Below, piece by piece: positions 3,282-56,894 of a stretch of 64,000 nt of DNA; position 1 is the stretch's first letter; each line of letters begins with the position of its first letter. The translations under genes and the position numbers were made by a program. Under the pieces are notes generated by a model. It was not told the origin of the DNA. It saw nothing but the letters and a program-made list of their open reading frames with translations, and did not search any database. Origin of the DNA: Chrysomallon squamiferum (taxonomy: Eukaryota > Animalia > Mollusca); contig CM022679.1 of NCBI GenBank assembly GCA_012295275.1, positions 25,792,001-25,856,000 of the forward strand, given 5' to 3'.

Positions 3282-4670
3282 AGGTACTAAATAATTAATA
3301 ACTACAGCAAGATTTACAAGTTTTGATAAAGCACTTAACATTATATAATTATTATGTGTCACATATACTTTGTTCTGAACAAGTAATAGTCCCCAGGAAT
3401 CTCTTTTACATGAATAATAGCTGTTTGTACAGGTATTTCTCTGGGAAAAATAAAACAATAAAAAATTGCGCTGAATCATTTTCTTAATCAGTGACATCTG
3501 ACAACTGCTCCGAGGTATGAAAGAGACAAAAACAAAAAGATAACGTTTTAAGACTATAGCAAGATTTATGTATTGCGATAAACCTCTGAACCTGCACAAG
3601 TAAGTCATGTGACACTCACCACACGTGGAGTATCGGAAGATCGTCTTACAGTTAGCGTACAGAGCAGTACAAAGACATCAGTTTGTGTTTTCAGATTTCA
3701 AGGCGATAGACTCAGAGCGTGATTCAACTCTAAACACGAAACTAATATACATTTCACAGTTTTGTTTTATATATATAAAGATCAAATCCAAAGATAATTT
3801 ATTATATTATTATTATTATTATAATTTTAATGTTTTTCTTTTATTTAGATAATGAGTCTATTGAGATTATGAATTACTACACGTACCAATCTTTATTCTG
3901 AAGTTACTTATATCAGGGAATCAATAAGAGATCGCATGTGGTTTGAAACTGAAAATACAAAGACTTAACATGAAATTTCTAGTGGAAACGTTTTAATATT
4001 TCCAAGTGATAATAATAATGATAAGTCACCAATAACAATAAACCAATTTAATATAAAAAAAAATGTTAACAAACTACTTTAAAGTGATAGAGGACTAAAT
4101 AAATAAAATTATTAAGCTTGAAGTTAACAAATAGGATGAAATTTTAAAAATACATTATCACTGTAAAAGACTAATGAAAAAAATTCATGATAATCAAATA
4201 TTCAACCTAACACAGTAATGTAAACTAATAGTAAATAAAAAATATATTTCCACAGTTATTTATGATTACAATACTAATAGTTTTCATTATGGGTCTGTTA
4301 TGCATCTGAAGGTATTACTGATATGTTAATGTTTTAATACTAATGGGTTTTTTTTATTCGTTTTTTAAAATCTTTTTATAATGATCATTATTATTAACAA
4401 ATGAGAAACAGTAGACAGTTTTAGTAGATCATTTTAAGTAGATAACAGGACAATGCACAACCTTGTATGAAATATCGTGATATAAAAAATTAAATGAATA
4501 AATAAGACTTTTAAAAGGAAAATCTGAATGAGTCTTGGAATTTCTATATCAAAAGAGCAGACATCATATTCATCTTTTGCCCGGCGTTGCAGAAAAATTA
4601 AAACTGAATGCATCAAAATAAAATTGTTTTTATCATAGCCAAGTTATTTTGACTTTTAACCTTATATAAT
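1684..4670 (+). repeat. Segmental duplicate of ~49531-52273; sub-modules recur at 1-1030, 10630-13400, 24050-24510 and 33480-35030, and inverted at ~30610-33210 and ~62530-62995
   Basis: Recurring blocks such as CTGCACAAGTAAGTCATGT, GCATCAAAATAAAATTGTTTT and CATATCTTGCCACTACG (reverse complement CGTAGTGGCAAGATATG at ~30882 and ~62873). Confidence 0.9.
3019..3090. repeat. (TC)n microsatellite
   Basis: Seen directly. Confidence 0.98.
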
Positions 4671-4976
4671 ATAGTTTATATAGTTACTATAATATAGTAA
4701 AAGTTTATGTCTGATAAATAAAATACAAGAGTACTTTCTAACGTAGTGAAAGAAACTATCTGAAGAAAATATAACATTTCATGATAAATCAAATATTCAG
4801 CCTAACTCAGTAATGTAAACTGATAGTAAATAGAAATATACTAGAAATATATATATATATAGCATATTATTTTGTATAATCTAAAGAATATTCTGTCAAG
4901 CTAACTTATTAAAATCTGCTAAAAATGAAGAAAACAAATAGAATGATAAAAGATTTAGATAATTTTTAAAAATACC

Positions 4977-5688: not shown

Positions 5689-7927
5689 ATGGAGCGTTTA
5701 ACTGATTTGTTAGTGTTATTTTTATTGTTGTTGTTGTTGTTGTTGTTGTTGTTATTATTATTATTTACATTAATAGTAAGAGTTAATATTAACTTATTAA
5801 TTAATTAATTAAATAACTATATAATTAATTTATGATTAAATTTTAAAACATACAAAACATATTTAAAATCTGGCTTCCATACTTTGCATAATAAAATCAG
5901 CTTTGGTTAATTATAATTGGTTACATGTTATTCATCTCAGAAAATTGTGAAGAAAAAAGAAAGAAAAAGATCCTATGTTTATTATCTTAATGAGAGATAT
6001 TTTATTTGTGTTTTTATGAGTTTTAAAAACAGGTGGAATAATGGTGCGGAATATGTTTTGGGAACTACTAAATTCTCCGAAAGATTCCGATCTCTGGAAA
6101 TTGAGGTTCATAATAAAACAAACAGCATCCTCCATTTAAAATCAACTCATTTTGAAGAAGGAGAATGGTTTACTTATCCTCTCCCCCGAGACATCAAACC
6201 CGGTCAGAAAAGCTTTGGACGTGTCGCAAATCGTCAAGCTACAATGGAAGGTGTGAAAGGTGGCGTCGAGTTTGAAATAGGAAGCACTGGGATGAACTTT
6301 TACATTGGGTTTGAGAATCCTTTTAAAGGTGACTACAAGTCTTTCATTGCTGTTGATAGGAATGAATCAGCAAAGTGGGCTTGTGAGAAAAACAGTGAAG
6401 GTTCTAGTAAGACTCTGAGAGGTCGCGGTTACAGTTTGTCATGTTCCCCACAAAATCCAACGGAATCGGAGTTTAAGAAATTCGTTTTCACTATTAAAAA
6501 GGTCAGTTTAATATGCTACCCCTACATGTATATATGTATAAACAAAAAGCAGTTTTTGGACTAATATAAAATTATTGAATGTTGTAATAAATAAATAAAT
6601 AAATAAATAAAGATATTAAGAAACTTTAAAAAAGAAAAGAAAAAAGAAACCGTCAAATAAATAAAATAATAATAATAATAATTATAAATAAAACAAATAA
6701 AAAATTAAGAATCAACGACATTAGTTTTATAATTCAGACAGCTCAATACAAAAATTAATAATGATGGTCTACATTTGCTAAGCCTGTTTTTAATCAGGTA
6801 TTTTAAACATTGTGCATAGTTATATACACACATACACCTCAAGTACCAAAACAGGAATCTTAAACAGGTACCAAAACAGGAATCAGTACGTTTCAACATT
6901 ATATTGCAGTTATTTTAATCAGTGTTACATGACCTCTAATAAAATAACTGAGATCTCTATGTATATATGAAAATGAGTACTCTGTCGTTAAATTTATTGT
7001 GAGAAATAATAGGTTTAGTTTACGTCATTTTTATTAATCTGACAATTGTTTTTAATTTTACATTTAATATACTAACTCTTGCTGTACTGTTGCTGAGTAA
7101 CACTAGTGTAAATAAGGTCCGCTATTTACCTCTATCTCTTCTCTTAATAGGTTCGAATGATCCATTAAAAGAAAAGGTGTTACTGGAAAAAATTACATAA
7201 TAACAATAATAGTGAAAATTTTATATTATTTGTTACGGAATGAATAAATCAATAAATTAATGATTAAAACAAACTAATATTATTATATTATTTTTTTACA
7301 GGATACACTAAATATTAAGATTACCAACACAACTCCCTATGATCTATGTTACAAAAATAAATTCGTGGAACCTGAAAGTACTTTGGTTAAGCCATGCACC
7401 ATTGCAGCTAATAAAACCGAAACCATCGTTTTGACACATTCTAGTGGATGTTTAGGAAAAGTGGCTGGTGGATTCAAATATACCCTCTTAAAAGGACAAA
7501 AATTAATCTTGTACATTGGCTTTCGTAAGACAACAGTGAAAAGTCTTGGGACATTCATTGACATAAAGAACGATAAAACAGCTGAATGGGCCTGCAAAAA
7601 AGCAGTCATTAAACGCCAAACCAAAAAGAATCGTGGCTACACTTTGCTTGCTTCCACAGACTATAAAAAACAAACTTTCTATTACACTATTAAAAATGTT
7701 GTAAGCAAAACTTATTTTCATTTTCTAACTTTATTTCATATCATCATCGGTATTATTTGTTGCGCGAGTGACCCCGTGTTTGTGTGTGTGTGTTTCATTC
7801 ACTCGGAAGAAATCCATTAGCATAGTACATAATAACTAATAATAATGTAAATTAATTTGATTACACTATGAAAGTATGCCTCTGATCATTATGTTTAACA
7901 GTTTTATGTCTTTTAGAATACTACTGC

Positions 7928-7962
<35 letters not shown>

Positions 7963-8311
7963 TAAAAAAGCTATTTTTTAATTCTGCTGCAGGATATTTA
8001 TTTCTGGAATGTCATGCACCAGTTTTAATGAACTTAACCTTACTTTTATCATTTATTTCACTGGACATCCCTGAAAATGAGCAAAACCTGTTTTTTATTT
8101 ATTTATTATAATTTTTCTTTTCATTTTAAAAAAAAAAAAAAACGCGAAAAATAATTTATTTCTCAAAATGAATTTTAAAAGTGCATGCTTTTTCCCCCTT
8201 TTTTTTCAGCTGTTCACTGACTCTCAAAAACTACGTCCCCGTCAGAGATGTTTACCACGACAGAAACGAAGAGTTTCCAAGAGAGGCAGAGAACGATGTA
8301 GAACAGGCTGA
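5689..8311 (+). CDS. Chimeric gene A (~329 aa): two aegerolysin/actinoporin-like beta-sandwich domains plus a GAR1-exon-5-derived basic tail; exons 5689-5708, 6033-6501, 7302-7700, 8210-8311
   Basis: GT-AG introns, phases 2/0/0, open frame: MERLTDL-WNNGAEY...[11 protein letters not shown]...GEWF...P..I.PG...GVKGGVEF...[10 protein letters not shown]...TIKK / DTLNIKITNTTPYDL...LYIGF...KTAEWAC...YTIKNV / LFTDSQKLRPRQRCLPRQKRRVSKRGRERCRTG*. The last exon aligns with GAR1 56012-56110. Confidence 0.75.
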
Positions 8312-9315
8312 TGAACTGGACCAGTTAACTTCAAATGAATTTCCGTTTTTTATACTGGTTAAAATAACTAAAATAACTAAAACATTATATATAATTTAAA
8401 GTTTGATAAACTCATGAGAATGAATAACACGATATAATTTAACAAGCATATAATTTTGTAACTCGGTCTTTCAGCTTTACAACATCATTTACATGTGTCC
8501 TTGTGGTATTGGTTTTGATACCTTTTTAATGCTTTATTTGGTAAGTAAACAAAAACTTACGTTAACAAAATCTTCACCATGTTACATCATGGCTTGTTTT
8601 TTTGGGGGGAGGGTTAATTATTTAACGAAGGTGATTCAAAACCCAGCGTCAAAATACATACCGAGACGATACATAATCACAATAAATGTTATCACAGGAT
8701 TAGTGCAGTCTATGAGTATCATTGGAAAGAGAAACATACAAATCTTGATCTGTTATCACAAAAGAAAACAGCTCTTCTTTTCAGAATTGCATTTTTATTT
8801 TATAAATATTCAAACCTAGTTGATTATTGCACAGTATTATGATATAGAAAAAACCGTAATCTGAAGAATACACAAACGTAGATGTAGTCCACATTTTACT
8901 TCATTTCCAGCTGACTTTCCAATCCTGTTATTAGACTGGAAATAATCCATATAAGAATCCAATACATCCTTATAAAATTGGATAAGGGGGATAACAATAT
9001 TTGTCGTTTTTAGATACTAAGTCAAAATTAACCATCATAGAAATGTGCAACATCATGTCTAAAATGTATTGTTTCATTAAAAAAATAATGATAGTAATAA
9101 ATAAATAAATCATCAAGAAAAATGTAAGTATCTGAGAAGACAACACAGAATAAATATGCATTGCAAAAACACAGATGTTAATTTTACCGGTATTGTATGA
9201 ATATCAAAGTATCCATGCTAATTATTATATTTTATTTTATTTATTCATTTATTTATTTGTTATTTCTTTCTTTCTTTATCCCATATTTCTTCGAGTTCAT
9301 TATATAGAAATCCTG

Positions 9316-10622
9316 CTTGCAGTGGGGTAAATGCTATATTGTTACTGCCACCTGTTTCTTTACAGTCGTACTGTCTGCACAAACACAGATTGCTTGCCTA
9401 ACTTTTGCTTTGTTGGGAGAGAGAAAAAAAACATTACAGAATCAACATATGTAGTATAATTTTGCAAGGTGAGGGACAAATAAAAAAAATCATCAGTTTA
9501 AAAGTTAATTTTGACAATTGCTATTGTGAAAATATAACTGCAGATTGTATAGACTATTGTAAAATAAATAAATAAATAGAAAGTAAAACATTTACAGTTT
9601 CTATACAAAATTTTCTATTATGAAAATGTAATATCAAACTGTATAAGATATCCTTAAACAAACAAATAAATAGATAGATATATATTAACATATTTTTATA
9701 AAATAAAATGCGAATTTTCATTCAAGCATAGTAATTAAGAGTTTAGAGAAGATGGACTATATTATGTAATCCTTTATTTTTAATCACGTATTTTTTATAT
9801 TTTTACATGCTTACGTAGATACGTAGACGTAAAATAATAAAACAGAACTCTTAAATACAACCAGTACGTTTCTTCATTATAGAGCAATTACTGTAGTCTG
9901 TGTTAGACGACTAAATCTTGATTTTTTTCTAATATACTATATTTTAAGAAATGTTGATTAAAAAGGAGAAAAAAGGAACATTTTAAAAATATTTTCTATA
10001 GTGGCTTAGATGATACATACCTTTTTCTGAATATAAACAAACAGTTTTTAGATATTCTTCCTTTAGTCTTGGCATCAACGCTTGGATCATATATTTTGCC
10101 TAATGATTTGCCCAGTGTACGAAGACAAAATCTAACAACTTCCTGATATGCATCTTGCTCTCTGTCTATAGAAGTACAGATTAATAAAGTTAATCTGTTC
10201 ACTTATCTGAACAATGTCAGATTAATGATCTGTTGCGCGAAAGAGACGGATATTCAAACTAATTTTTAAAATGTATTAAACAATTAAAAACTTATGAAAA
10301 CTGAAACGAAAATAAGAAAAGAAAAAAGAAAATGAAAAAAGAAAACAAGTTTAACATTTCAGAAAATGGACTGTTGATCTGATTCACATTCTTTTAGCAT
10401 TAGCATTAGGTTTCTCGAGATTCATAATATAACTATCTCACTTAACTTACTAACTAAATTTATAAACAAATGAGAAAATGACGAAAAGAAGAGAAAAGAG
10501 AAAATTTTGAATCCAAAATTACCTTCTTCCTCCTTTATTTTTCCATGATGTCTCAGCTGGAGCAGGCTGATGTTTCAGTTTTTTCTGGTGGAATTCAGTC
10601 ATATTGGTAATTTTCCTTTTCA
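9316..10622 (-). pseudogene. PRPF31: Degenerate PRPF31 C-terminal exons (~10622-10523, ~10167-10045, ~9408-9316)
   Basis: EQDAYQEVVRFCLRTLGKS...VDAKTKGRISKN resembles Prp31 EEDAYQEDLGFSLGHLGKS...NEATKARISKT. IAFTPLQ and a PP.K...PAP exon remnant are also present, with stops and frameshifts. Confidence 0.8.
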
Positions 10623-10793
10623 CTGAATAAAGCTAAACGATATACGAATGCGTATACTTTAATGCGTATATGTGTAGGACACTTAACCTAGTACTGTGAG
10701 TATGAAATAAACAAAATGAAATAACATTCCAGGGTGTATGTGATCTGTTATAAATTTCATATTTATATATATAAAAAGACTAAATCAAGATAA

Positions 10794-10854
<61 letters not shown>

Positions 10855-11913
10855 TAAATGTTTGGTTTTTTTTTTTTTTTTTTTTAGTTTATAAGTCTAT
10901 TGAGATTATGAATTAAACACGCACCAAACTTTTTATTCTGAAGTCACTTATATCAGGAAATCAATAAGAGATCGCGTGTGGCTTGCAACTGAAAATACAA
11001 AGAATTAACATGCAGTTTATGATGGAAACATTTTAATATTTCTAAGGAATGATAATGACGATAAGTCACCAAGAACAATAAGCCAGTTTAATATAACAAA
11101 ATGTAAAAAAAAAAAAACTACTTTAAAGTGATACAGGAGTAAATAAATAAAATTATTAAGCTTGAAATTTCAAAAATAAATTGTCAAAAAAAGAAAACTT
11201 ACGAAAATAATAAAATTGATAAATATAACAACTCATGATCAATCAAATATTTAACCCAGAAATTTAAACTAATAGTAAACAAAAATATACTTCCATAGTG
11301 ATTTATGATTAAAATACTATAAACGTTCATTATGGATCTGCTATGCATGTGAAGGTATTACTGATATGTTGATGTTTTAACAGCATTCATTTTTTTGTAA
11401 TGATCATTATTGTTAACAAATGAGAAACAATAGACAATTTTAGTAGATCATTTTAAGTATATAACAAGTAAATGCACAACCTTGTATGAAATATGTGATA
11501 TAAAAAATTAAATGAATAAATAAGTCTTTAGAAAGGAAAATCTGAATTAGTCTTGGAATTTTTTTATCAAAAGAACAGACATCATATTCATATTTACATG
11601 GCCTGTTTATCTTTTGCCCAGCGTTTCAGAAAAATTAAAACTGAATGCATCAAAATACAATTGTTTTTATCATAGCCAAGTTATTTTGACTTTTAACCTT
11701 ATATAACATAGTTTATGTCTGATAAATAAAATACAAGAATGTTTTCTAAACTAGTGAAAGAAACTATTTGATGAAAATAAAACAACATAATGAAAATTAA
11801 AAACTGTGATGATAAACACTCGATACAGAATGACACTTTAATAGTTCGAAAGCATGTATTATAAATGAACATTATTTACAAATTTTCACACTTTGTTTTT
11901 GAGTACGACTATG

Positions 11914-11944
<31 letters not shown>

Positions 11945-12625
11945 TCGTTTGTGAAACCAACTAATTTTTTCTTCTCATGATCATGTTCTCAAATGCGAAA
12001 ATAATTTAGTAGAGAGAAAGATTTCACCTTATATTTTTTCTTTGTATTATGGATTTAGATGTTTCTGTGTTGGTTCTTGTCGTGTTTATTTAGTTATTAT
12101 TATTTTTTATTTAATTTTATTTAATTTATTTATTTATTGTTGTTTTAAAGAATATCTTTTCATAATGCAGAGAGAGAGAAAGATTTCACGTTATATTTTA
12201 TGTTTGCATTATGGATTAGTTATTTGTGTTGTTATTGTTGTTTTAAAAATATCTGTTCACAAACTTTGTAAGTTAGTTATTTTGCTTGTCTGTAAAAATA
12301 TTTTTGTTGATGAGCTGGGTTGACCTCCCTGATTGTTGTGCATGATTGGTGGAATTAATAATATTTCACTGAGAGTAGTGTATTTACTATACTTACTTTG
12401 ATACACAAAGCAGAAATACAATCGTACTATAGCGATCATTCGTTAGAACATTTCTCACTAAACACCATACGAACGTGATTCTGCATAGTTTAAAGCGCAT
12501 TTGCATAGGACACGTAACCTAGTATTGTGATGTATGAAATAAACAAAATGAAATAACATTCCAGGGTCAATAGTAGGTAATAATAATAATAATAATAATA
12601 AGAAGAAGAAGAAGAAGAAGAAGAA

Positions 12626-12671
<46 letters not shown>

Positions 12672-13512
12672 CATAATAATAATAATAATAATAAATAAAC
12701 CAGCAATTGAACACAGAAAGAAATAACTTTTAGCAATATATAATTTACATTTATTTGTCGAAGTAAATTAAATGTCCGAAACAATAGAAATTTATCTAGT
12801 CAGCATATCTTGCCACTACGTACTTGCGTGACTACATATATTATGGTCGGTTTGTTTCTTTATGATTTAACGAATGAACAACAATTTGTGAGCTCAAATG
12901 AAACGGACAGCATTATATGCATAATGAAACAATCAAAATTTGAGATCTGCACATATTACTTGGTTCTTTATGTGTTAGGCACGTTTCTGTGTAAAATTAA
13001 ATGACAAATGATTTTAATAATTCACACCAATGCAATCAAGAATTTGTTAACACATAAATTCAGTTTGTTTTCTAATAATTTTGTTCTCTTTGTCTTCTCA
13101 GTTGGCAAATTTATTAAAAGTTAATCAATGTTCAGACTGACAGAAAGAGCACTGGACAAGATATTTTCTCATATAAAAAATGTTGTATGTACACACACAT
13201 ACATACATACATACGCACATTGTTTTTGTGGGTTTTTTTTGTTTTCAATTTGTTTTCTTTTTGTTGTTTTTTTGTTGTTCATAAATGCTGTTTTAATGTT
13301 TCTGATTATCAGTTTTTAAACTAACTCCTCTCTCTCTCTCACACACACAGAGACAAACGAACATAAACATACAGACATATTAAAAAATATTAATAAGATA
13401 ACATAAAATAACACGATTTTAAGAATAATTAATTTTCATGTGATTTTTGTCTCTTCCATGGAATTTTTAAACACCTCCCCGACATGACGAAACAGCAATA
13501 TTAATTTAAGAG

Positions 13513-13564
<52 letters not shown>

Positions 13565-13930
13565 TCTGAAGTGTATCTATATAATTATTTATAAACGTTT
13601 AATCTAGATAAATAAATCAAGAAAAACGTTTCATGTCGCATATCTGAATTATATTCATTGTCGGATCTACGTTGTTATAAACAGGTAGCAGTTCAACGGA
13701 AATAACATGTATAAATTCACATGACAGGTGTATTAAGTCTTTGTACGTATATTTTCCCGGGAAATCTACGATAGCAGTTACGCTGGATAGGTTTCTTTAT
13801 TAGCAGTGTCTCAGAGTTTAAAAAAAAAGAGACAAACTCTTTACGATTTAATTACATGATTGCTAAATAAATATCAGTGTTAATGAACAAGCCGAAGATC
13901 GGAGGAAAAGAAGAAATCGAGAAAAGATTA

Positions 13931-14046
13931 ATGGAAAGAATGAACTACATTAGAAATTTACCGTGGTTTATTGCAACTGCTTTTACATGGTTAGTGTTAA
14001 TTTTTTTTGGTTATTATTATTATCATCATCATCATCATCATTATCA

Positions 14047-14120
<74 letters not shown>

Positions 14121-17100
14121 TGTACTTTTATGATTTTAAAAAACAGGTGGAACAATGGTGCGGAATATGTTTTGGGAACTACTAAATTCTCCAAAAGATT
14201 CCGATCTCTGGAAATTGAGGTTCATAATAAAACAAACAGCGTCCTCCATTTAAAATCAAGTCATTTTGCAGAAGGAGAATGGTTTACTGGTCTCGAACCC
14301 GAAGAAATCGATCCAAATCAGAAAAGCTTTGGACGTGTCGCAAATCATCAACGTACATGGGAAGGTGTGAAAGGTGGTGTCGAGTTTGAAATAGAAAGCA
14401 CTGGGATGAACTTTTACACTGGGTTTGAGAATCCTTTTAAAGGTGACTACAAGTCTTTCATTGCTATTGATGAGAATAAATCAGCAAAGTGGGCTTGTGA
14501 GAAAAACAGTGAAGGTTCTAGTAAGACTGTGAAAGTTCAAGATTACGATCTGTCATGTTCCCCACAAAATCCAACAGAATCGGAGTTTAAGAAATTCGTT
14601 TTCACTATTAAAAAGGTCAGTTTAATATGCTTCCCCTACATGTATATATGTATAAACAAAAAGCAGTTTCTGGACTAATATAAAATTATTGAATGTTGTA
14701 ATAAATAAATAAATAAATAAATAAATAAAGATATTAATAAAAATTTAAAAAAAAGAAAAGAATCAACGACATTAGTTTTATAATTCAGACATTAGTTTTA
14801 TAAATCAAAAAATTAATAATGATGGTCTACATTTGCTAAGCCTGTTTTTTAATCAGGTATTTTAAACATTGTGCATAGTTATATACACACATACACCTCA
14901 AGTACCAAAACAGGAATCTCGAATTAATCAGTATGTTTCAACATTACATTGCAACTATTTTAATCAGTGTTACATGACCTCTAATAAAATAACTGAGATC
15001 TCTGTGTATATATGAAAATGAGTATTCTGTCGTTAAATTTATTGTGAGAAATAATAGGTTTAGTTTACGTCATTTTTATGAACTTGACAATTTTTTTAAT
15101 TTTACTTTTAATATACTTACTCTTGCTGTACTGTTGCTGAGTAACACTAATGTAATTAAGGTCTTATATTTTGAATTTCTGTGCTCTTAACAGGTTCAAA
15201 TGATCCATTAAAACAAAAGCTGTTTAATATATTAGTTTATTAACTGGAAAAAATATGTTAAAGAACTAAATATATAGATAGCCGTTATAACAACAACAAA
15301 CAGCACATAATAGTAATAATGAAATTTTATATTATTTATTGAAGAATGAATAAATCAATAAATTAATGATTAAAACAAACATAATATTATATACAGGATA
15401 TAGTATTTTTAAATATTATCAACAAAACTTCCTATGATCTATGTTACAAAAATAAATTCGTCGAACGTAAAACTGTTTTGGTGGAGCCACGCACCATTGC
15501 AGAAAATAAAACCGAAACCATCGTTTTGACACATTCTAGAGGATGTTTAGGAAAAGTGGCTGGTGGATTCAAATATACCATCTTAAAAGGACAAAAATTA
15601 ATCTTGTACATTGGTTTTCGTAAGACAAAAGTGAAAAGTCTTAGGACATTCATTGACATAAAGAACGATAAAACAGCTGAATGGGCCTGCAAAAAAGCAG
15701 TCAATAAACGCGAAACCAAAAAGAATCGTGGCTACACTTTGCTTGCTTCCACAGACTATAAAAACCAAACTTTCTATTACACTATTAAAAAGGTCGTAAG
15801 CAAAACTTATTTTCATTTTCTAACTTTATTTCAAATCATCATCAACATGATCTGTCGCGCGCGTTCCCCCGTGTTTGTGTGTGTGTGTTTCAATCACTCG
15901 GAAGAAATCTATTAGCATAGTACATAATAACTAATAATATTGTAAATTAATTTGATTACACTATGAAAGTATCCCTCTGACATTATGTTTAACAGTTTTA
16001 TGTTATTTAGAATACTACTTCTAATATAATAATAATAAGAAGAAGAAGAAGAAGAAAACCGATACCGAAAGCTACAAAATCTTTCATCAATTATAACTTT
16101 ATATTAATTTTTATCTCAACCTTTAAAGAAAAGTCCTGAACATGAGAAAATAATGTAACTATTTCTTTTTAGACTTGTCTGTATTAAAAAGCTATTTTTT
16201 AATTCTGCTGCGGGATATTTATTTCTAGAATATCATGTTTCAGTTATAATGAACTTAACGTTCGATTTTAACATTTATTTTATTTTTATTTATTATTATT
16301 ATTTAAATTAATTTTTATTTATTTATTAATACTTTTCTTGTTATTGAAAATAAAAAGAAAAAAAAACATGAAAAAAAACGATTTATTTCTCAAAATGAGT
16401 TTTAAAAGTGCATATTTATTATTTTACTTGCTTTATTATTATTATTATTATTATTTTTTTTTTTTTCAGCGTTCCACTGACCCTCAAACAGTACTTCCCA
16501 CGCAAGCAAGAGGCGGTACAGTCTACATCTAATCAATTTTAGCTAGATGGCTAGTTTCTAACATACAATAACTGCCAGAGAATCATTAGGCTAGAATTGG
16601 TAAAAACAGATGGGGGTTTTTATTTTTAAAAATCATCATTATAATATATATATTTAAAAAGTGACAAAATATTATTAGAAACCTTGATTTTAACTTAAAT
16701 ACTGCTGTGTTACTATGGCTGATCCATGGCTTATATTTCAGCTAACGTTTGTAGGGTACGGAACCCTTGGGTTTTAACTCCAGCTGAGCTATTGGTTTCA
16801 GTTTTTATATAGTTGGTTATAGGTTATTGTTTATTTGGCCTGTTGGTTTTAAGCTAATTGTATAGAGATACATGTTACTGGAATATTTGGTTTCAACTTT
16901 AATGTGATTGTTTGCACGAAGCTGAATTCTTTTTTATTTATGTTTACATGTTATTGGAAACTTCAATTTTATATCATATAAGCATGTATTTTTATACAGT
17001 AGTGGCAACTTCTTGCCATATCTAGTAATTTCCAGATAATTACTTGGCATTTATCCTGTATTCGGGATAAAAGTATGTAGAAATTACTAACAGTTTTTCA

Positions 17101-18486
17101 GTGGTAGAAAAAGATAATAAGACTTTAATTATTACCGGACACCTTGATTTTAACTTTAATGTGTCCACTAAGGAACCCTTGTTTTTTTCAGAATTTTGAT
17201 TCTTGTTTACCAATGAAAAATAAATTTGTATACTTCTGTATCATTTATTATAAATGACAGATCTCTTAACATAATTACAGGTGGCCGAGGAGGACTCAGG
17301 GGAGGAAGAGGAGGGGACAGGGGTGGAAGAGGTGGAGGTTCCCTGAGCAGAAGGAGAGGAGACAACAGAGGTGATGGTGATATTAATTCTAGAAAAGCCT
17401 TTGACTGAAAACAGTTTTATTTTGCAAAACTCTGACTTCAAAAGATCTTTGTTTATTCTGCTTCTTCTTTTTCTTTTTTTGGGGCTTTTTCTTACTTTTT
17501 TTTTTTTTTTTAAAACTTTAAGCTTCGGGATTTTTATGAATTTTTGTTTTTCTTCTTGTTTATCAATGAAAAATAAATTTGTATATTTCTGTATCATTTA
17601 TTATAAATGACAGATCTCTTAACATAATTACGGGTGGCCGAGGAGGACTCAGGGGAGGAAGAGGAGGGGACAGGGGTGGGAGAGGTGGAGGTTCCCTGGG
17701 CAGAGGGAGAGGAGACAACAACAGAGGTGATGGTGATATTAATTCTAGAAAAAACCTGGTATAACTGAAAACAGTTTTATTTTGAGAAACTCTGACTTCA
17801 AAACATCTTTGTTTATTCTGGGGGTTTTTTGGTGTGTGTTTTTTTTTTTTTTTTTTTTTTTTTTTGTAAAACAGATGTACCCGTGTTTTGGGGTTTTTTT
17901 AAATGAATTTTTGTTTGTTTTTCTTCTTGTGTATCAATGAAAAATAAATTTGTATATTTCTGTATCATTTATTATAAATGACAGATCTCTTAACATAATT
18001 ACAGGTGGCCGAGGAGGACTCAGGGGAGGAAGAGGAGGAGACAGGGGTGGGAGAGGAAGAGGAGGACTCAGGGGAGGAAGAGGAGGAGACAGGGGAGGGG
18101 GAGGAAGAGGAGGACTCAGGGGAGGAAGAGGAGGAGACAGGGGAGGGGGAGGAAGAGGAGGGGAAAGGGGAGGAAAAGGAGGACTCAGGGGAGGAAGAGG
18201 AGGGGAAAGGGGAGGGGGAGGAAGAGGAGGGGAAAGGGGAGGAAAAGGAGGACTCAGGGGAGGAAGAGGAGGGGAAAGGGGAGGAAGAGGAGGGGAAAGG
18301 GGAGGGGGAGGAAGAGGAGGACTCAGGGGAGGAAGAGGAGGGGAAAGGGGAGGGGGAGGAAGAGGAGGACTCAGGGGAGGAAGAGGAGGGGACAGGGATG
18401 GTAGAGGTGGAGGTTTTCGGGGCAGAGGGAGAGGAGACAACAACAGAGGAGGAGGAGATTTTAATTCTACAAAAAGCTTTCACTGA
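13931..18486 (+). CDS. Chimeric gene B: two beta-sandwich domains plus GAR1-derived linker and RGG tail; exons 13931-13989, 14147-14615, 15397-15795, 16470-16515, then 17281-17408 (~366 aa) or 18005-18486 (~484 aa)
   Basis: Domain exons are the same size as in copy A (469 and 399 nt). Exon 16470-16515 ([16 protein letters not shown]) ends in the GAR1 donor G|GTACAGTCTAC (phase 1) and joins in frame to ACAG|GTGGCCGAGGAGG terminal exons. GAR1-like 3'UTR follows 18486. An upstream in-frame ATG exists at 13883. Confidence 0.75.
14011..14120. repeat. (TAT)n/(CAT)n microsatellite in intron 1 of gene B
   Basis: Seen directly. Confidence 0.98.
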
Positions 18487-20461
18487 AGAAAAGTCTGTTA
18501 TTTTTTATTTCTCATTGAAAACAGTTTTACTTTGAGAAACTCAAAAGATGAAAAGATGTGGAGCAATTTCGTTTATGAAAATGAAGAGTGCCTGTCATAT
18601 TCCGTTTTGCCTGCTAAAAAGTCGAGCATCTCAGTGAAAATGGATTGGCACAGTTGACTTAATGTGTAAGAAGAAGTTCTCTGCTGGAAAAGTATTTTCA
18701 CAAATTTTGAACCTGTTTTCACTGATGAGAAGAAATCATGCTGCCACAAATAAGAAAATTAAAAGAAATATTCTCTTGTTGGTGCTGTGAGAGAAAAAAA
18801 AATTGTGTTCTTTGCATCATGCATCTTTAAAAAAATCTTCTTTTATTAGCTGATAAAATGTCTTAAGAACTGTATTTACATTTCTGGGAGGCCAAAGCCC
18901 AAGTAAAAATTTCTTAATTAATGTCTAAATCATGTGCAGATTAATGTTGGATTGACAAAATGAAACTGTTGGAACATCTAAGAAAAGTTAGATAAATTTA
19001 TATATTTATCAAATGAAATATTTAGTAATAAAACATCAAGTAAGAAAAACCTGTTTCTAATTTTATTTATTATTTTTTCACATTTTACATATTGCAATTT
19101 GTATTTTTAACAGTGTATTCATGAATTTTTGTTGTTAGGTAATTTATTTTAACATTCTAAAAATAATTTAGTTTTTTTTTTTTAATGGCAGAAATTTTAA
19201 TTTTTATAATCATGGTTTGTATGGATCCAGTTTGTTAGAGATAAAAAAGAAAAACATGAAACATTGTTAATTATTACCATCAATAAACTGTATGGAAGGT
19301 CTTCAGTTGTTTGTTTTCATTGTTGTATTTGTTTTTCATGAACATGTGTATTAGTTATTATTATTCAAATCTGTTTTGGATGTCGTGGGAAGAAAAATGT
19401 ATTAAATGAACAGTAACTCGAGGGTGATGGTGTACTGTAATACTGAAAGGCTAGTTCATAATCTAAAATAACACTGGATGCAGAATCAAACTAACTTTCA
19501 GTTACCTAGATATTGAATGTCAATTTTGGAAAATTCCTTTATAAAAATACCTTGATTGCCAGCCATTTTAAAAAGTCCCTTTTCCATTAAATTTGTGTTA
19601 AAAATAAGCAAAAAAGTAGACTAAAAGATTAGCAGCAAAGAGTTTTTTTCATATTTGTTTTAGAGATGGTGACAAATAAGACTGTCATAATCTTTAATGA
19701 ATCTTTAATATGGACATACATGGGATCGATCACACAAACTGTTGTATGTCAGTTCATTAACTATGTACTACATATCATTTTATACGCTCATTTAACAACA
19801 TGTATGACCAATGCAAGAGGACTGCCACACTAGCAAGTTGCTAGGTTATCTGCATCAGTATTGTCCCAGTCATCTTGCTTAAAAAAAACCACAGAATAAT
19901 AATAATAAGAAGAAGAAGAAGTAGAAGAAGAAGAAAGAAAATATTTGCCAAAATATATACAATGTGTAATGAGACAAATTCAAGTAATATTGCTTACATG
20001 ACAGCTGAAGTTTCCCTGTTGACATCTGATATTGATATCAGCATGACTGCAGAAATATTTAATACATTTTAGTAATATACGTTTTTAAATTAATCAAACT
20101 GATATTTTTGCTTATACAGATCACGAATGATATCTTTAAATTTAACGTTTGTCTTTATAAATGGGAAATACGATGCTATTTAAGCCCATTTTTAAATCCA
20201 ATAATCAATTCCTTTGTACCCCGTTTAAAATATAACATTCTCCATCTCTCTGTTTTCAAAACTTAGTGCTGCTTGATAGCTTTGTTATTTGTTGTTTGCT
20301 AATTCTACCCAAGATCGTTCTGTTAGATCCCTCATAACAACGATGTTTTAGCCATGACATGAACCATATAATGCAGTATTATCGAGTCTTTTGATAAAAT
20401 GCAGGCGTTGTGTTGGTGCTTGTCTTGGCAAATTGTTTCTTGACAAACAGCTCTGGTTTAA
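16460..20461 (+). repeat. Segmental duplicate of the GAR1 3' half and downstream DNA (~56000-58987)
   Basis: Shared intron 5 (ACTATGGCTGATCCATGGCTTATATTTC), 3'UTR (GAGAAACTCAAAAGATGAAAAGATGTGGAGCAATTTCG) and downstream blocks in the same order. Confidence 0.95.
17200..18486 (+). repeat. Three tandem copies of the GAR1 terminal RGG exon (17281-17408, 17634-17764, 18005-18486); the third has an in-frame GA-rich repeat expansion
   Basis: Each unit is preceded by ATCATTTATTATAAATGACAGATCTCTTAACATAATTAC. The acceptor is AG in copies 1 and 3 but GG in copy 2. Confidence 0.9.
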
Positions 20462-23400
20462 GTGATATACACAGTGGATTAATTTGCTCTAAATTCTTTT
20501 CTGAAAGAATAATAAAACTATCAATCTGCCAAATTTATTGTGTTTTATAAGAATAAATCAGCTAATACTGATAGCAAGAATAATTCAGTTGATTATAAAA
20601 ATAATGAAGGCAGCATCAATAGCCATTTCAGTAATTAGCAAATGCAGCAATACACAATTAAAATCAGGAGGTAATTTCAATAATTGTCAGTAAACTCTTT
20701 AAATAATTAATTTTGTGTCAGTGAATAGTTCTGGTGATGTCAAGGACTGTTTGAATATATCTCATCAGACTAACAGTTTGATCTAATTTTTTATTTAAAC
20801 ACTTACCATTCCACAAACTTCCATACTTTCAAATCTGACTGAAACTTTATTTTGGTTAGAATTAGTATTTGTCTTGAAATTCCATGACATATGCACACAG
20901 TCAGCATAAGTTTTTGATTCAAAGTCTTACTATGATTAGTTCTTTTGCTGCTTGTTCAAACATAAAACTATCTATGCTTACATCTGTTATCAAAACCAAC
21001 AAGTTTGTCCTTTCCATCATCAAAAACATTTTATTTACTTTTTTAATTTATTGTTTTTAAATCATTAGTTAGCAACAAGGCTCAAAGAAAAATTACAAAA
21101 TTTCCCATAAATTACAAAATATGTTTTCATAACCTTAAATATATTCATAATCTGAATAAATAAGTATGTAGAACAAGTGAACATACAATGATGTTAATGT
21201 AATAATTCATTTTACTAATTCAGTTGTTGTAAAAAGAAGACTATAAATTTGTATAATGCATAAAAGTTTTGTTACTGGGAAATACATACCCTTGTGTTGT
21301 TGATGCTGTTACACTAACTACCATGATTGTTGCTGGGGTAAGGATATCTTGAAGGAAAGTATTCTTTTTGGAATTTGTAAAAATGTCATTTCCCAGTTTC
21401 TGAAATAAAAATAACATAAAGAAACAATTACTGGTGAAAAAACAAAACAAAAAAAAACAAAAAACAAATGCTATTCAAATGACTTTAAGAAGAAAATGAT
21501 TTGTTATTTATATTAATTAATAACATTGTAGCATTTATTTAACTCTTACAAATTTCATATTTGTATAAACAGTGAGGGAAAAAAGAAATTACTTTATGTA
21601 GAAACAGAGAATGCAATATATACAATATGCTTTAAATTATGAATGAAAAACTGATAAAATACCTTCACTGTGTATATATATTCCATAGATGTCTGAACCA
21701 AAGATTCTAATTCTGGAAAACATTTAGAATACAGATCTTGTGTGAACTTGCGAATTACATTTGAAAAAAGAAGAAAATGAAAACAACAATATTAATTAAC
21801 AAAATAATATCGTTAACATCAAAATGATAAATCAAATATTTATACAGTTCAGTATTCTATAAATATGATTATGCTATCAATCCCAAATTCAAATCTGATA
21901 ATGTGTATTTTATAATTTTTTGCCACATCAACCATGACCCTTGATGTATGATTGTGTTTCTTCTATACCTAAGGTAGAAACAAGCTTTAGAAACAATGAA
22001 AAATAGGGTAAATAATGACTAGATAGAAATTGATTTGTCTGGGACTGAGATAGTATATATGTCTGCTAACAAAGCACATACTTTCAGAAGTGTTTAAGTA
22101 CTTCTCAGGTAACAGATAATAAGGTGTTATGACTTTTATAACAGATCATGGAGCACTGTGGATTTATAGCCATCAGATGGGAGATAATTAATCAACATGT
22201 ACTGAGCATTATTTCTAAATCTTTGCATATCCTTGTTGATTACAAACATGTTAAATATCAACAGTTCATCTAGTATTTTTGTACTGATTTAAAACTCATT
22301 ATCTGATATTGTCAATAAAAAAAAATGTCCAGCTGTGTGGATAATTTTTATTCTGAACTTGGATAAATACTTTTTATTTACAGTGAATCCTACATTAAAT
22401 TCCAAAACACAGAGTTATTTTAATAAGCCTGATATCCAAAACTGAAAATGAAAGATAAAAAAAATATATATCACCAAATGACAATTGAAAGTTGAAAAGA
22501 AAAGAAGAAGACTATTATAGAGCAATTTATTATTTGTGATGCAAGCAACAAATCTTTATCTGGTGTTTGAAGAAACTCACTAATTTCATTGTCAATCTCT
22601 ACAGTCAACATGTCCTCAGGATCAGCTTCGACAGGTTCAGGAACTGAAAAACTAAAAGAAAACAAATAAATACATACATAATTTCTTTTTATTATTCTTC
22701 AGTGTCTATAAACTGTTTTTGTTTCATGAAAAGAATAAAGCTATCTTATTTATATTTAATGTTGTGTACTAATACATGGTTCACATGATGGGCAACACGG
22801 GCAAAAAACTTGACATACTGTACTGTGCTTTACTTTAAATCCACAGTGTTCTGTTATTTCTGTCAAATTATATTTATTAATAAATCATGTAATCAACTGT
22901 ATGAATACCTGCAAAAATGCATTTTGATTAGAAGTTAAGAATAAGCTCAGGCATACAATCAGATGAAACCTCGCATGAATCCTATAATATCAGTTTACTT
23001 TTCAGAATAATGTATTAAGAAAGCAGACAATGTCCATTAACCTACCACTGTCTCTTCTTGAAGTCTTCGAGTATTTCCATACATTGCCTGTGATCTTAGG
23101 CAGCTGAACAAAATGGGAGAAAAAAGAAAAAATAATGCATAAAATATATTTAATATTATTATCATTAAAAGTGTTATAATCTAAAAAGAAGTTTTAATTC
23201 TAAAACCATATACATCTATATGTTCCTGTGAAGACTGAAGGACCTGTTTTGTCCTCTGTATTATATTTATAGTATTTACTCATTTCAGCAAACCTATAGT
23301 TGAATCAATAAATCATTATTATAATGAATTTATATGTATCTGTCTTACAGACTGTTTTCACCTCTTTACTGTCTCTCAGCTTGTCCACACAGCTGACTGA

Positions 23401-23501
23401 GGAGTACTGTTTATCCAGATCCACGTAACCTCTTCCACATTGGCAATCTCAGCCTGAACCTCTTCTTCATCTTGTTCAACATCTTCACCCCCTTCCTCTT
23501 T
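20462..23501 (-). pseudogene. PRPF31: PRPF31 (U4/U6 snRNP Prp31) partial unprocessed pseudogene, N-terminal exons
   Basis: Exons translate to PVEADPE..TVEIDNEI, VIRKFTQDLYSKCFPELESLVQ and KLGNDI...LQDILTPATIMVVSVTASTTQG, matching Prp31 (GPVEAAPEY..TVEIENEL, YSKRFPELESLV, ILTNATIMVVSVTASTTQG). Frameshifts, a deletion and a mutated acceptor are present. Confidence 0.9.
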
Positions 23502-34022: not shown

Positions 34023-34054
<32 letters not shown>

Positions 34055-35201: not shown

Positions 35202-36692
35202 GACATTCCTGACATTAAAAAGAAATATGAAACACTTTAAACTAACATTCTTTTGTCAATTTTCTCCTGTTCAAAGAAAAATTCTTCCCATCAAAAGCAT
35301 GGGTCATTTCTCATTCTGATCCACCAGATTCAGAAATAAAACCATGCGAACCAAAAGACGTCATGACTGCAGAGCTTCGTGGTTTACGATCCGAAATTAA
35401 AGTTGGCCTGGAATTTGAAATTAAAAACTCTAAACTGAGTTTGTACATCGGCTTCTACAAGCCACCAGAAGGCAAAGAAAAATATTTCATGAAGGTTGCT
35501 CAGGGTAAAACGGCCGTATGGGCCGCGGAAAAATGTTTTCAGAATTCAGATGTGACACCGAGTGAAAAACATTTTCAGTTCTGCCATCAAAGCAACAGCG
35601 AAGAACAGCGTACAGTTTTTACATATACCATTAAATATGTATGTATATAGTATGTATTTCTGTCTGTGCGTGTGTGTGTGTGTCCGTGTGTTTTGTTTCC
35701 ATGTTTGTATATATACAAATGTATGTGATATGGACGTATATATGTAAATATATGCTTGTACGTTTGTGCATTGTTTTTTAAATTTGAAATGGGGTGATAA
35801 AAAATAAAAAAATGTTCTTCTTACATTTAATGAGATGTTATTTCTAGTAAGATATGAAATATTTTTGCCAAAATATACAAGAAAATTACTGTATCTTAAG
35901 TGAATACTTTCAAAACTGAAACCCACATATTTCATTTGAAAGAAAAATAAGTAAATAATCAAAATTTCAAAAAATTAAAACCACAAATTAATCATTCATA
36001 TTAACACAGTACATTCAAACCAAAAATAGAAAATAAGAAATGTTCTGTTTATAGTATTAAATTATTTCTTCTCAACTTTGCGAAAGCCTAAAGTAGATGA
36101 GAAATATTTCTGATTACCTGTTTGTACTTTCTTTTTTGACAATTTCAAGTCCCTACAGAAGATATAAATATTACTTTTTAGACTTGTCTATATTAAAAAC
36201 CAATTTTCTAATTATACTGCAGGATATTTACTTCTGGAATATCATGTCAGTTTTAATGAATTTAACCTTCGATTTTAACATTTATTTACAGGACATACCT
36301 GAAAATGAGAAAAAGCTGGCTTTTCTGCTCATAAATACAATCTTGAAACTTCTCATCAAAAACATGGGCACTTCCTCTTTCTGAACCATCAAATCCAGAT
36401 AAAGACTATACGTAATTAAAATTGGGCTGGAATTTGAAATGAAAAAATACTAAACTGAGTTTGTACATCGGCTACTACAAGCCACCAGATGGCGAAGAAA
36501 AATATTTCATGGTGGTTGCTGATAAAAAAAAACCCAGCTGAATGGGCTGCCAAACAATGTTTAGACAATTCAGAAAAGTTGATGAGCGATGAAACCTATC
36601 AGCTTCGTAAGCCATCTGACAATGAAAGTAAGCCTCCAACTTACAAACACACCATTGCATATAAAAGAATTTCGTGTGGTTGCCTCGGCTAA
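35202..36692 (+). pseudogene. Two further, disrupted beta-sandwich domain exons of the same family (35202-35638 and 36292-36692)
   Basis: Motifs IKVGLEFEI..LSLYIGFYKPPEG..KYF...KTAVWAAEKC...FTYTIKY and IKIGLEFEM..LSLYIGYYKPPDG..KYF...PAEWAAKQC match the [18 protein letters not shown] pattern of genes A and B. Both exons contain frameshifts or stops relative to their acceptors. Confidence 0.7.
36062..36152 (-). pseudogene. PRPF31: PRPF31 last-exon remnant lying antisense inside the intron of the beta-sandwich pseudogene
   Basis: GLEIV...KKVQTGNQKYFSSTLGFRKVEKK*; homologous to 38780-38884 with an internal deletion. Confidence 0.8.
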
Positions 36693-48905: not shown

Positions 48906-48918
48906 CTGTAAATTTAAA

Positions 48919-54554: not shown

Positions 54555-56894
54555 ATGTCATTTCGAGGTCGTGGAGGGGGTGGACGTAGTTTTCGTGGTG
54601 GAGGAGGAAGAGGTAACGTAATATTTGAATTAAGAAAATATATGTATTTTAATAAATATATATTTCTTTTGCTTTGATATAAATTTTAGAAAGTACCCTT
54701 TTTTGGATTCCTAGATTATAGATAGAAATATTTTTAATTATTAAAGAAAAACACATTTGTTATGATAAAACATTAATGCAATTATTAAACTTGTTGCTGT
54801 TGTTGTTTCAGGTGGTGGTAGAGGTGGGGGACGGGGTGGTTACCGGGGTGGTGGAGGTGGAAGATTTTATCAGGATCAAGGACCCCCAGAGGAGGTTGTA
54901 GGTATGTATTTCAGTGTCTTTGTTTATTTAATACTTTTTACATTTGCCTCAGAGTTTCTTTTTTTGTTCTTTTATTCAATATAAGTTTATATTAAATAAA
55001 AGAATGAAAATTAAACTTGTGGAAAATATTGTTATTTCTATTTTCTAAATACCGAAAGTCGCATAAATAAAGTTTAGATAACCTGGAGTTTGTAAAATTG
55101 CTAGTCCATTTATCAGTATCTGTCAAATGCTAATAATTGTTTTTTTTTGTTTTCTTGTTCTTTCAGAAATGGGTTTTTTTACCCACCCTTGTGAAGATGA
55201 CTTAGTGTGCAAATCAACCAATGAAAAAATTCCTTACTTTAATGCACCGATTTTTCTCGATAACAAGCAGCAAGTTGGAAAAGTGGATGAAATATTTGGT
55301 CAGATCAAAGATGTTGTATCTTTTCTTCAAATAAGAACATTAAGTAATAATGTTAATGATAAATTACCACGAGCTTTCATATTACTAATTTATTACCTCT
55401 TATTAAAATGACTAAAACTCTCTTTTATGTAAATTTCCTTACCTTTTGAAGTATTTTTCTGTTAAACTTTCTGGGTACATGAAAGCAACTTCTTTCTCCA
55501 AGGCCACAAAAGTAAGTAGTTGATTTTATTTAAAAAAAAAAATTATATACAATAGTTTTAAGCAATTTATGTATGACATATTTATTTTGAATTACAATAA
55601 TTTATTTTAAAAATGAAATGTTTAAAAAATCGGAGTCTGGAATTTTTGTGGGACTGACTTCTGATGTCATAACAAATATTTAACTTTCATATTATTGTCA
55701 GTTTTGGTGTTTAAAAAACCCTCTGAAATAAACAACAAGACCAAAGGGGAATTAATGTAGCTGCTGAAATAAAATGTTAAGATGGCTGAGGGTAGAATCA
55801 ATTTACAAAATTTTATAATTCAGTTTATTCTATAGCCAAAGCTAATTTTGAAAAACACCTTTTCAAAACAACTACGAAAAGTTAAAGTGTACTATTTTGT
55901 AAAATTCACGAATTCTAAAATACACAGGCATGAAAGTCTGTTCATTATTACTTTTTAAATTATATTTGTATTTATTATTATTTATGTTATACGTTTTATT
56001 TATTTTTTCAGTTGTTCATTGACCCTCAAAAACTACTTCCCCTGCAGAGGTTTCTACCAAGGCCACCAGGACAGAAACGAGGCGTTTCCAAGGGAGACAG
56101 AGGACGAGGTGGAGGGGGCAGAGGATTTGGTACAGTCTACTTCAAATCAGTCTCAGCTGGTTTCTTTTCACTGAGTTTCACTCTTGTTGTTTTACATGTT
56201 GCTGGGACTATATCAGTTTTTATGAAGGGGGTCGCTAGTTCCTAACATTCAGTAATTGCCAGAGAATCATTGGGTATTATTTTATCCAATAGTTAGGCTA
56301 GAATTGGTAGAGACAGATAATGTATTTAAAAATCATCACTATAATGTATATATTTAAAAAGTGACAATATGTTACTAGAAACCTTTAATACAGTTGTCTT
56401 ACTATGGCTGATCCATGGCTTATATTTCTGCTAATGTTTCCAGTGGAAGCTGTTAATTTCAACTTTTGTGTAGTTGTTTATATGTTATGGTTTTAATTTT
56501 ATTACATCTCCATGCATGTTACTGGAGTATTTGGTTTCAACTTAAATGTTGATTGTTTGCATGAATCTGAACAATTTTGTATTTAATTACATTTGCCTAC
56601 ATGTCGGTGGAAACTTCAGTTTTGTAAGTGTGGATTTCTATGCAGTAGTGACTAGTTTCTAAAACTTCTGGTAATTTCCATTTATTGTAAACATCAAATC
56701 TCTCATCATAATTTACAGGTGGCCGAGGAGGTGGATTTAGAGGCGGGCGAGGAGGATTCAGGGGAGGAAGAGGAGGGGACAGGGGTGGCAGAGGTGGAGG
56801 TTTTCGGGGCAGAGGGAGAGGAGACAACAACAGAGGTGGTGGAGGTGGATTCAGAGGAGGAGGAGGTTTTAATTCTAGAAAAAGTTTTGACTGA
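54555..56894 (+). CDS. GAR1: H/ACA ribonucleoprotein complex subunit 1 (GAR1), intact, ~216 aa; coding exons 54555-54612, 54812-54901, 55167-55315, 55452-55511, 56012-56129, 56719-56894
   Basis: Spliced translation [10 protein letters not shown]...[102 protein letters not shown]...RGG tail. This is the canonical Gar1 core between two GAR domains. All introns are GT-AG and phases are compatible (651 nt total). Confidence 0.97.
55316..55451 (+). other. Probable U12-type (minor spliceosome) GT-AG intron in GAR1
   Basis: 5' site GTATCTTTT (U12 consensus GTATCCTT). Branch-like TTTCCTTAC at 55434-55442, ~10 nt from the AG, with no real polypyrimidine tract after it. Confidence 0.75.

Follow-up and report, generated by a model that had tools for sequence, protein, structure and literature searches.

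Aegerolysins are single-domain proteins of about 13-20 kDa that often work with a partner protein, and chimeras formed by exon capture after duplication, such as jingwei and TRIM5-CypA, are a known class of new genes. In mussels, the mytiporins are described as a lineage-specific tandem expansion with many pseudogenes, in which the signal peptide is frequently absent, the porin domain is always C-terminal and the C-terminus is usually set by the last strand (PMC9645577). Here we analyse a 64,000-nucleotide (nt) stretch of Chrysomallon squamiferum DNA (Mollusca; contig CM022679.1, positions 25,792,001 to 25,856,000 of the forward strand), referred to as the window. It contains two tandem genes, A (6016-8311) and B (14130-18486), each with two open exons coding for homologous beta-sandwich domains (D1 and D2). 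On the evidence of the sequence, we read them as two-domain paralogues each predicted to end in a tail taken from captured exons of the GAR1 gene, exon 5 in A and exons 5 and 6 in B, and we give this reading a probability of about 0.6. The two are probably a lineage-specific chimeric gene pair.

The origin of the downstream exons in GAR1, proposed in a preliminary description of this DNA, is borne out by DNA homology to exons 5 and 6. Segment 8201-8336 matches GAR1 56003-56147 at 74%, 16550-17034 matches GAR1 intron 5 (56234-56680), 18362-20458 matches the GAR1 3' untranslated region (UTR) and flank (56749-58983) at 79-80%, and the exons of gene B that code for arginine-glycine-glycine (RGG) repeats match exon 6. 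Exons 5 and 6 are the only coding exons copied, and the Gar1/Naf1 core domain (PF04410) is found in no exon of gene A or B. Gene B is moreover embedded in a duplicate of the wider GAR1 neighbourhood, 9991-13411 being the counterpart of the region upstream of GAR1 (48054-50927) and 16550-20458 that of the GAR1 3' half and flank (56234-58983). The parent gene itself was rightly said to lie intact in the same window: its six exons span 54555-56894, and its core exon matches Pfam Gar1 (PF04410) at E 1.8e-19 and is closest to bivalve GAR1 (78-82% identity to the named matches, 86% to the best overall, none identical).

The captured exon 5 carries in gene A a 9-nt deletion and a stop five codons before the old donor, which is lost; in gene B it has an in-frame 72-nt net deletion relative to GAR1 and retains the donor. 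The peptide encoded by the captured exon of gene A begins LFTDSQKLRPRQRCLPR. All four predicted junctions (7700^8210, 15795^16470, 16515^17281 and 16515^18005) join a GT donor to an AG acceptor, with phase 0 after exons 1 and 2 and phase 1 after the exon-5-like piece of gene B, the same as after GAR1 exon 5 (118 nt). The junction coordinates and phases given in the preliminary description, and the peptides it quoted from GAR1 and the gene copies, are correct; comparison of A and B at the DNA level confirms the tandem pair as well, and the exon shuffling that it proposed is supported, exons of two parents lying on one strand with compatible splice sites and phases. Of the exon-6 copies in gene B, the third has the 3' UTR of the parent, in which an ATTAAA some 270 nt past the stop is conserved, and the second is probably unusable, to judge from its acceptor. 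We also observed that a unit of about 360 nt (end of GAR1 intron 5, exon 6 and start of the 3' UTR) is triplicated locally at 17194-18091, and that in its third copy slippage, in steps that are multiples of 3 nt, has lengthened the RGG array from some 176 nt to some 480 nt.

The domains had been described as fused to a GAR1 tail. The juxtaposition stands, but the GAR1 fragment replaced a lost third beta-sandwich domain, as a relic in gene A and a homologue in the gastropod Gigantopelta aegis indicate. A profile search of 1.84 billion representatives found 67 relatives at E <=1e-3 (25 at <=1e-10 and 1 at <=1e-30), the closest being the uncharacterized Gigantopelta protein LOC121377950 (XP_041361978.1, P0102 in our set; 464 amino acids, E 6e-48), which consists of three tandem domains and ends 27 residues past the third. 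The best matches to it are collinear: D1 of A and B matches its D1 (E 4e-20; 31% identity for gene A), D2 of B its D2 (2e-11), and a further open exon of the window, at 35277-35638, its D3 (7.5e-8). An intron piece at 36162-36291, 83-87% identical to 7960-8096 in A and 16153-16280 in B, continues through an intact acceptor into a D3-type exon (DIPENEKKL...) that now has stops and frameshifts. Gene A retains the first 27 nt of its lost third-domain exon (DIPENEQNL), after which homology ends; because of this relic, the GAR1 piece is seen to have replaced a domain and not to have been added to a complete gene. Reconstructed from these comparisons, the ancestral gene had three tandem domains, each in one phase-0 exon.

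Past the relic, A and B have in common an AT-rich stretch of about 100 nt that leads to the exon-5 acceptor, and after it the polypyrimidine-CAG of GAR1 exon 5. An origin of these 100 nt in GAR1 intron 4 or elsewhere was not traced, the search returning low-complexity matches only. Since the junction is common to A and B, there was one fusion event, followed by duplication of the unit. In the simplest history, a D1-D2-D3 gene had its exon 3 broken by this single rearrangement, which attached what was left of the intron to the 3' portion of a duplicated GAR1 and so produced gene B; partial duplication of B, up to the exon-5 piece, would then have given gene A. The captured exon would have decayed independently in the two genes, with exon 6 triplicated and the RGG array expanded in B.

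Divergence (K) is uneven. From exon 1 to the middle of intron 2, A and B differ by 0.08-0.10; the remainder of that intron stands at 0.24, and the opening 36 nt of the exon-5-like piece at 0.39. Gene B differs from GAR1 by 0.28 across intron 5 and by 0.09-0.13 across the 3' flank. Some stretches have probably been homogenised by gene conversion. The family, previously called young, can be so called in a relative sense only, with K of about 0.09-0.35 between the GAR1-derived parts and their parent and of 0.08-0.39 by segment between A and B. These figures also bear on whether the juxtaposition might be an assembly artefact of a repeat-rich, gapped region. The window is indeed a patchwork of duplicated blocks with a run of N, but the junction is present twice, its two occurrences have drifted apart since (K about 0.24 across the intron piece that they share), the deletions in the captured exon differ (9 nt in A, 72 nt in B), and so does the sequence downstream. 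Two diverged versions of a junction do not come from a collapse or a chimeric join, and we consider such an artefact very improbable.

Between A and B, D1 and D2 together differ by 75 substitutions in 885 coding nt (12 synonymous, 63 nonsynonymous), with no stop and a ratio of nonsynonymous to synonymous divergence (dN/dS) of 1.39. Exon divergence equals that of the introns (K 0.08-0.10 vs 0.085-0.09), so the amino-acid sequence is not conserved. Of 5000 copies simulated neutrally under the substitution spectrum of the introns, only 1.2% acquired no stop. There are no indels in the 885 exon nt, where about 11 would be expected, against 14 events in 1135 intron columns (P about 2e-5), and only 2 of those 14 are multiples of three; when the non-repetitive intron stretch alone is used (2 indels in 260 columns), our own arithmetic gives P of about 1e-3 for the absence of exon indels. 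These alignments argue that the two-domain frames of A and B are held open by selection while the amino acids change fast, and by analogy such fast change with strict upkeep of the frame is the pattern of rapidly evolving effector families. The earlier statement that both frames are open is accordingly informative for the two domain exons, and uninformative for the short, compositionally biased tail exons.

The same data speak to the view that a broken three-domain gene left A and B as pseudogenes that died recently, their frames open by luck or through gene conversion. This view would fit the dN/dS of about 1.4, the equality of exon K (0.08-0.10) and intron K (0.085-0.09), the loss of the third domain, the degenerate family copies nearby and a region that amounts to a duplication graveyard. 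It is at odds with the rarity of stop-free sequences in the neutral simulations (1.2%) and with zero indels in 885 nt where the introns predict about 11. Gene conversion homogenises, but does not clear stops and frameshifts from both copies, and we regard the pseudogene explanation as quite improbable. Both copies lack D3 and share the junction; the frame was therefore kept after the original 3' end had been lost, and some new 3' end must work.

The family to which the domains belong was approached by sequence and by structure. D1 and D2 share 27% identity and find each other in tblastn at E 4e-6 to 1e-9. D1 alone finds Cry34Ab1 (PDB 4JOX), of the aegerolysin family, in phmmer at E 9.6e-4, and the match rises to 1.2e-4 with a profile of 5 sequences and to 2.4e-8 with a 35-sequence family profile, whose next matches are bryoporin (E 0.056) and FraC (E 0.11). 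When the AlphaFold (AF2) model of D1 was compared with 48,161 chains using VIA-align, eight of the top nine rows were taken by bryoporin (Z 11.3, root-mean-square deviation 3.2, 138 aligned residues), Fav (10.9), FraC (10.8), HALT-1 (9.2), Nakanori (9.0), the S. rolfsii lectin, a fungal fruit-body lectin (8.8), Cry34Ab1 (8.5) and TDH (7.4). Foldseek of the same model against the PDB gave no match at E <=0.001, and its weak matches were actinoporins and Nakanori at E of about 3e-3 (template-modelling score, TM, 0.5-0.59), among adaptin-ear domains of lower TM. For D2 the fold call rests on homology to D1 (27% identity, tblastn 4e-6) and on language-model features, which for D1 and D2 alike point to the clan of these structural matches (0.94 each).

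In Pfam at E up to 1, D1 and D2 match none of Aegerolysin (PF06355), Anemone_cytotox (PF06369) and Nakanori (PF21230). Among 35 family members, Nakanori is matched by 2 (best E 1.5e-4) and Anemone_cytotox by one, at E 0.0084 and 16.2 bits against a cut-off of 25. By these sequence searches the domain family falls outside current Pfam models. The aegerolysin/actinoporin-like fold proposed at the outset is nonetheless supported at the superfamily level for both domains, by the Z-scores of 10.8-11.3 with bryoporin, Fav and FraC, a match that comes from a predicted D1 structure, and by the profile match to Cry34Ab1 at E 2.4e-8. DSSP assigns the D1 model a single helix (residues 119-127) and none at the N-terminus, although residues 1-11 have a predicted local distance difference test (pLDDT) score below 50; as the model shows no such N-terminal helix, we do not call A and B actinoporins proper. 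Single-domain homologues extend 25-50 residues further at the N-terminus than A, B or the Gigantopelta protein does. With D1 as query, word-indexed protein searches in the near and longer length classes found nothing, a result of low weight because the collection is without the species' own proteins.

The predicted tail of gene A has 33 residues with an isoelectric point (pI) of 12.0, 13 arginines plus lysines and no RGG; that of gene B has 57 or 175 residues, a pI of about 12 and 6 RGG (via exon-6 copy 1) or 34 (via copy 3). Mechanistically, the exon-2 donor would splice to the strong GAR1 exon-5 acceptor, the captured exon or exons would supply the stop codon, the 3' UTR and the polyadenylation site, and gene A would thereby gain a polybasic tail of 33 residues, gene B one rich in RGG. 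Several features are consistent with this: the ancestral phase-0 donor after D2 is intact in both genes, no acceptors in the locus are stronger than those preceding the captured exon, and in gene B the in-frame deletion of exon 5 and its retained donor count for use of the tail. That the captured GAR1 exon serves as the terminal coding exon in at least one of the genes is what we predict from these sites, with a little more confidence than doubt.

Weighing against this reading are, in the tail itself, the divergence between A and B in the first 36 nt of the exon-5-like piece (K 0.39 vs 0.08-0.09 in neighbouring introns), the erosion of the conserved GAR1 motif in both genes, and synonymous (pS) and nonsynonymous (pN) differences from GAR1 of 0.29 and 0.18 in A and 0.24 and 0.31 in B, drawn from too few sites. 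As far as these comparisons go, the tail appears to be without clear coding constraint. Past the exon-2 donor, moreover, A and B both stay open for 40 codons, to a common stop at 7820/15915. Beyond the tail, the dN/dS of 1.39 is by itself indistinguishable from neutrality; the region of the two genes is a duplication mosaic with an assembly gap at about 52.2-52.5 kb; the D1 model is of only moderate confidence (pLDDT 68.7, predicted TM score 0.69) and that of D2, at pLDDT 42, is unusable; and the sole Pfam match of D1 and D2 is to an unrelated model, DUF5001, below threshold, with none above it. The open RGG frames were considered as coding evidence and rejected, all three forward frames being open there.

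These points lead to the explanation that the two-domain genes are functional and the GAR1 exons unused, the proteins ending by read-through into intron 2 (to 7820/15915, adding about 40 hydrophobic residues) or in an unrecognised exon, with the GAR1 fragments as dead pseudo-exons that merely lie downstream. The 40-codon frame, open in both copies with the same stop position and no indel, would be expected in that case, as would tail exons that evolve about as fast as introns or faster and the loss of the acceptor in one of the three exon-6 copies. Against it, neither AATAAA nor ATTAAA occurs in the 509-nt intron 2 of gene A, compared with an average of 6.7 such signals per kb over the window, and the open stretch is a TG-rich tract that also follows the donor of the copy at 35 kb, where the frame stays open for only 3 codons. 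Both copies have kept very strong polypyrimidine-CAG acceptors despite a surrounding K of 0.24-0.39, and the exon-5 deletion of gene B is in frame with its donor kept. We think it unlikely that the GAR1 exons go unused, though this is a real contender, and prefer the reading in which the main effect of the capture was to give a truncated gene a stop and a 3' end and so to rescue it.

On this preferred reading, A and B would likely encode leaderless effectors that bind lipids or membranes, of a kind that has expanded in molluscs, and the tail would be mainly a replacement 3' end, contributing at most an electrostatic pull towards nucleic acids or anionic membranes. Placed on a membrane-binding module, a cationic tail could make it bind anionic membranes more tightly. 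Of note, 5 of the 12 substitutions in the gene A tail relative to GAR1 create arginine (our own count, of small numbers); any tail function is speculative. The RGG tails described earlier hold for gene B (6 or 34 RGG), where the repeats are clustered if the exons are used, and not for gene A (0 RGG). The proposal that the tail binds RNA or targets the nucleus did not find support, gene A lacking RGG and the conserved GAR1 motif being degraded in both copies; nuclear or RNA targeting is possible but unsupported. A bolder version, in which a double lipid-binding module swapped its third domain for a functional, arginine-rich nucleolar tail, so that leaderless effectors are steered to anionic microbial membranes, RNA granules or the nucleolus and the pair is under diversifying selection, seems to us rather improbable.

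Table 1. Coordinates of the exons, relics and parental gene discussed in the text (positions in the window)
Feature	Position	Strand	Remarks
Gene A, candidate 5' mini-exon	5689..5708	+	ATG..., donor GTTAGT; phase-2 compatible with acceptor 6032/6033
Gene A, exon 1, domain D1	6016..6501	+	162 aa from ATG 6016; ends in phase 0 (AAG|GTCAGT)
Gene A, exon 2, domain D2	7302..7700	+	133 aa, phase 0 to 0
Gene A, relic of the start of the former third-domain exon (DIPENEQNL)	8066..8095	+	acceptor ACAG now ACTG
Gene A, predicted terminal coding exon, GAR1-exon-5-derived	8210..8311	+	33 aa, then TGA; old downstream donor lost
Gene B, candidate 5' mini-exon	13931..13989	+	in frame with acceptor 14146/14147
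Gene B, exon 1, domain D1	14130..14615	+	83% aa identity to gene A D1
Gene B, exon 2, domain D2	15397..15795	+	83% aa identity to gene A D2
Gene B, GAR1-exon-5-derived exon	16470..16515	+	46 nt; donor G|GTACAG kept; phase 1 as in GAR1
Gene B, GAR1-exon-6 copy 1	17281..17408	+	acceptor intact, RGG-rich, stop at parental position
Gene B, GAR1-exon-6 copy 2	17634..17764	+	acceptor AG changed to GG
Gene B, GAR1-exon-6 copy 3	18005..18486	+	acceptor intact, expanded RGG array; followed by copied GAR1 3' UTR and flank, to ~20458
D3-like open exon, further family copy	35277..35638	+	best match D3 of the Gigantopelta protein, E 7.5e-8
Degenerate D3-type exon	36292..36690	+	stops, frameshifts
Parent GAR1, six coding exons	54555..56894	+	54555-54612, 54812-54901, 55167-55315, 55452-55511, 56012-56129, 56719-56894

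Each gene has two candidate starts (Table 1), either the in-frame ATG at 6016 or 14130, which lies 17 nt upstream of a possible acceptor, or an upstream mini-exon (5689-5708 or 13931-13989, donor GTTAGT) that would join in frame to 6033 or 14147. Residue 9 of gene A aligns with the start of the Gigantopelta protein. Gene A has no evident signal peptide, and the candidate mini-exon of gene B would contribute a short hydrophobic stretch. A TG-rich tract lies just past the domain-exon donor in all three family copies (7740-7800, 15835-15890 and 35660-35700), whose preceding exons share no more than about 25-30% identity; it could act in splicing as an intronic element, or be no more than a microsatellite. 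Elsewhere in the family, the bacterial (Xanthomonas) members P0149 and P0161 carry some 120 further residues at the C-terminus, in which a 'NG.YVA...G.LV.Y' pattern recurs that we take to resemble bulb-type lectins.

The 64-kb window is AT-rich (GC 24-36% per 2-kb window, mostly 26-31%) and made up of a patchwork of duplicated blocks; it contains no RNA genes by Rfam at gathering thresholds and a tRNA scan. A repeat block of about 1 kb occurs at least 5 times at 73-89% identity (10-1030, 3799-4776, 10826-11918, 33936-34999, 51458-52273 and others); it may be a transposable element or the core of a segmental duplication, and could have mediated rearrangements. The run of N that marks the assembly gap (about 52218-52511) lies 2 kb upstream of GAR1 and is adjoined by an arginine/serine-rich open frame on the minus strand (52167-52663). 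Two copies of PRPF31-like 5' exons, which include a Nop-domain exon (Pfam E 1.8e-6), are also found on the minus strand, at 21244-23531, where the visible exons are open, and at 40180-42633, where the Nop exon has two stops; the 3' half of the PRPF31-like gene was not seen near either. The disruption of neighbouring duplicates noted earlier is real, both for the D3-type copy at 36292-36690 (stops, frameshifts) and for the PRPF31-like Nop exon at 40556-40696 (two stops).

None of the 67 family representatives has at least 2 RGG motifs or a GAR1-like motif, so that a check for other beta-sandwich proteins with RGG tails returned 0 of 67. In 31 of them the profile reaches the end of the domain, and of these 20 stop within 12 residues and 7 carry unrelated tails of at least 25 residues, some charged and of low complexity. 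A full-text literature search gave no relevant paper pairing actinoporin with RGG or aegerolysin with glycine-arginine-rich. Taken together, the homologues and the literature indicate that the architecture is new, in agreement with the preliminary description, to which no earlier account of it was known. Exon capture after segmental duplication is in itself a well-known process, and the domain family adds a new branch to a superfamily already known.

If chimeric transcripts exist, the locus would show, cleanly and in a form that can be dated, how exon capture rescues a gene: one that had lost its last domain exon would have remained under selection thanks to an acceptor, a stop codon and a 3' end borrowed from a duplicated housekeeping gene, with the intermediates (the lost-exon relic, the intact parent and the degenerate sister copies) all still visible in one 64-kb window. 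The analysis also defines an aegerolysin-fold family outside Pfam, with 67 representatives that include multi-domain molluscan forms, and extends the list of lineage-specific expansions known for actinoporin-like genes in molluscs. No long-standing question is opened by it, and the case for a function of the tail is weak.

Compared with GAR1, a subunit of the H/ACA snoRNP from whose exons 5 and 6 the tail exons descend, gene B keeps the same acceptor, donor and phase as well as RGG repeats; A and B nevertheless lack the Gar1 core domain, their conserved motif is degraded and A has no RGG, and they are not members of the GAR1 family. As in the classic exon-capture chimeras, part of a duplicated housekeeping gene becomes new terminal exons while the parent remains intact; the captured piece is here a low-complexity C-terminal region instead of a folded domain, and the expression of A and B is putative. 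With the aegerolysin Cry34Ab1 the genes share a small beta-sandwich (fold match Z 8.5, 24% identity over 110 aligned residues), although, unlike aegerolysins, they have two domains in one chain. The actinoporins (FraC, Fav, bryoporin and HALT-1) are the best structural matches to the D1 model (Z 9.2-11.3), yet the sequence similarity is marginal (profile E 0.056-0.11) and the model has no N-terminal helix. From the mytiporins, which like the coluporins are molluscan actinoporin-like proteins, A and B differ in that a predicted tail follows the domain. The Gigantopelta protein, with 27-31% identity, has three domains and a short hydrophobic tail where A and B have two domains and a predicted GAR1-derived tail; it belongs to the same domain family, with tandem domains each ending in a ...TIKK-like strand, no evident signal peptide, a short N-terminus that aligns with the start of A and B, and D1 and D2 in collinear order.

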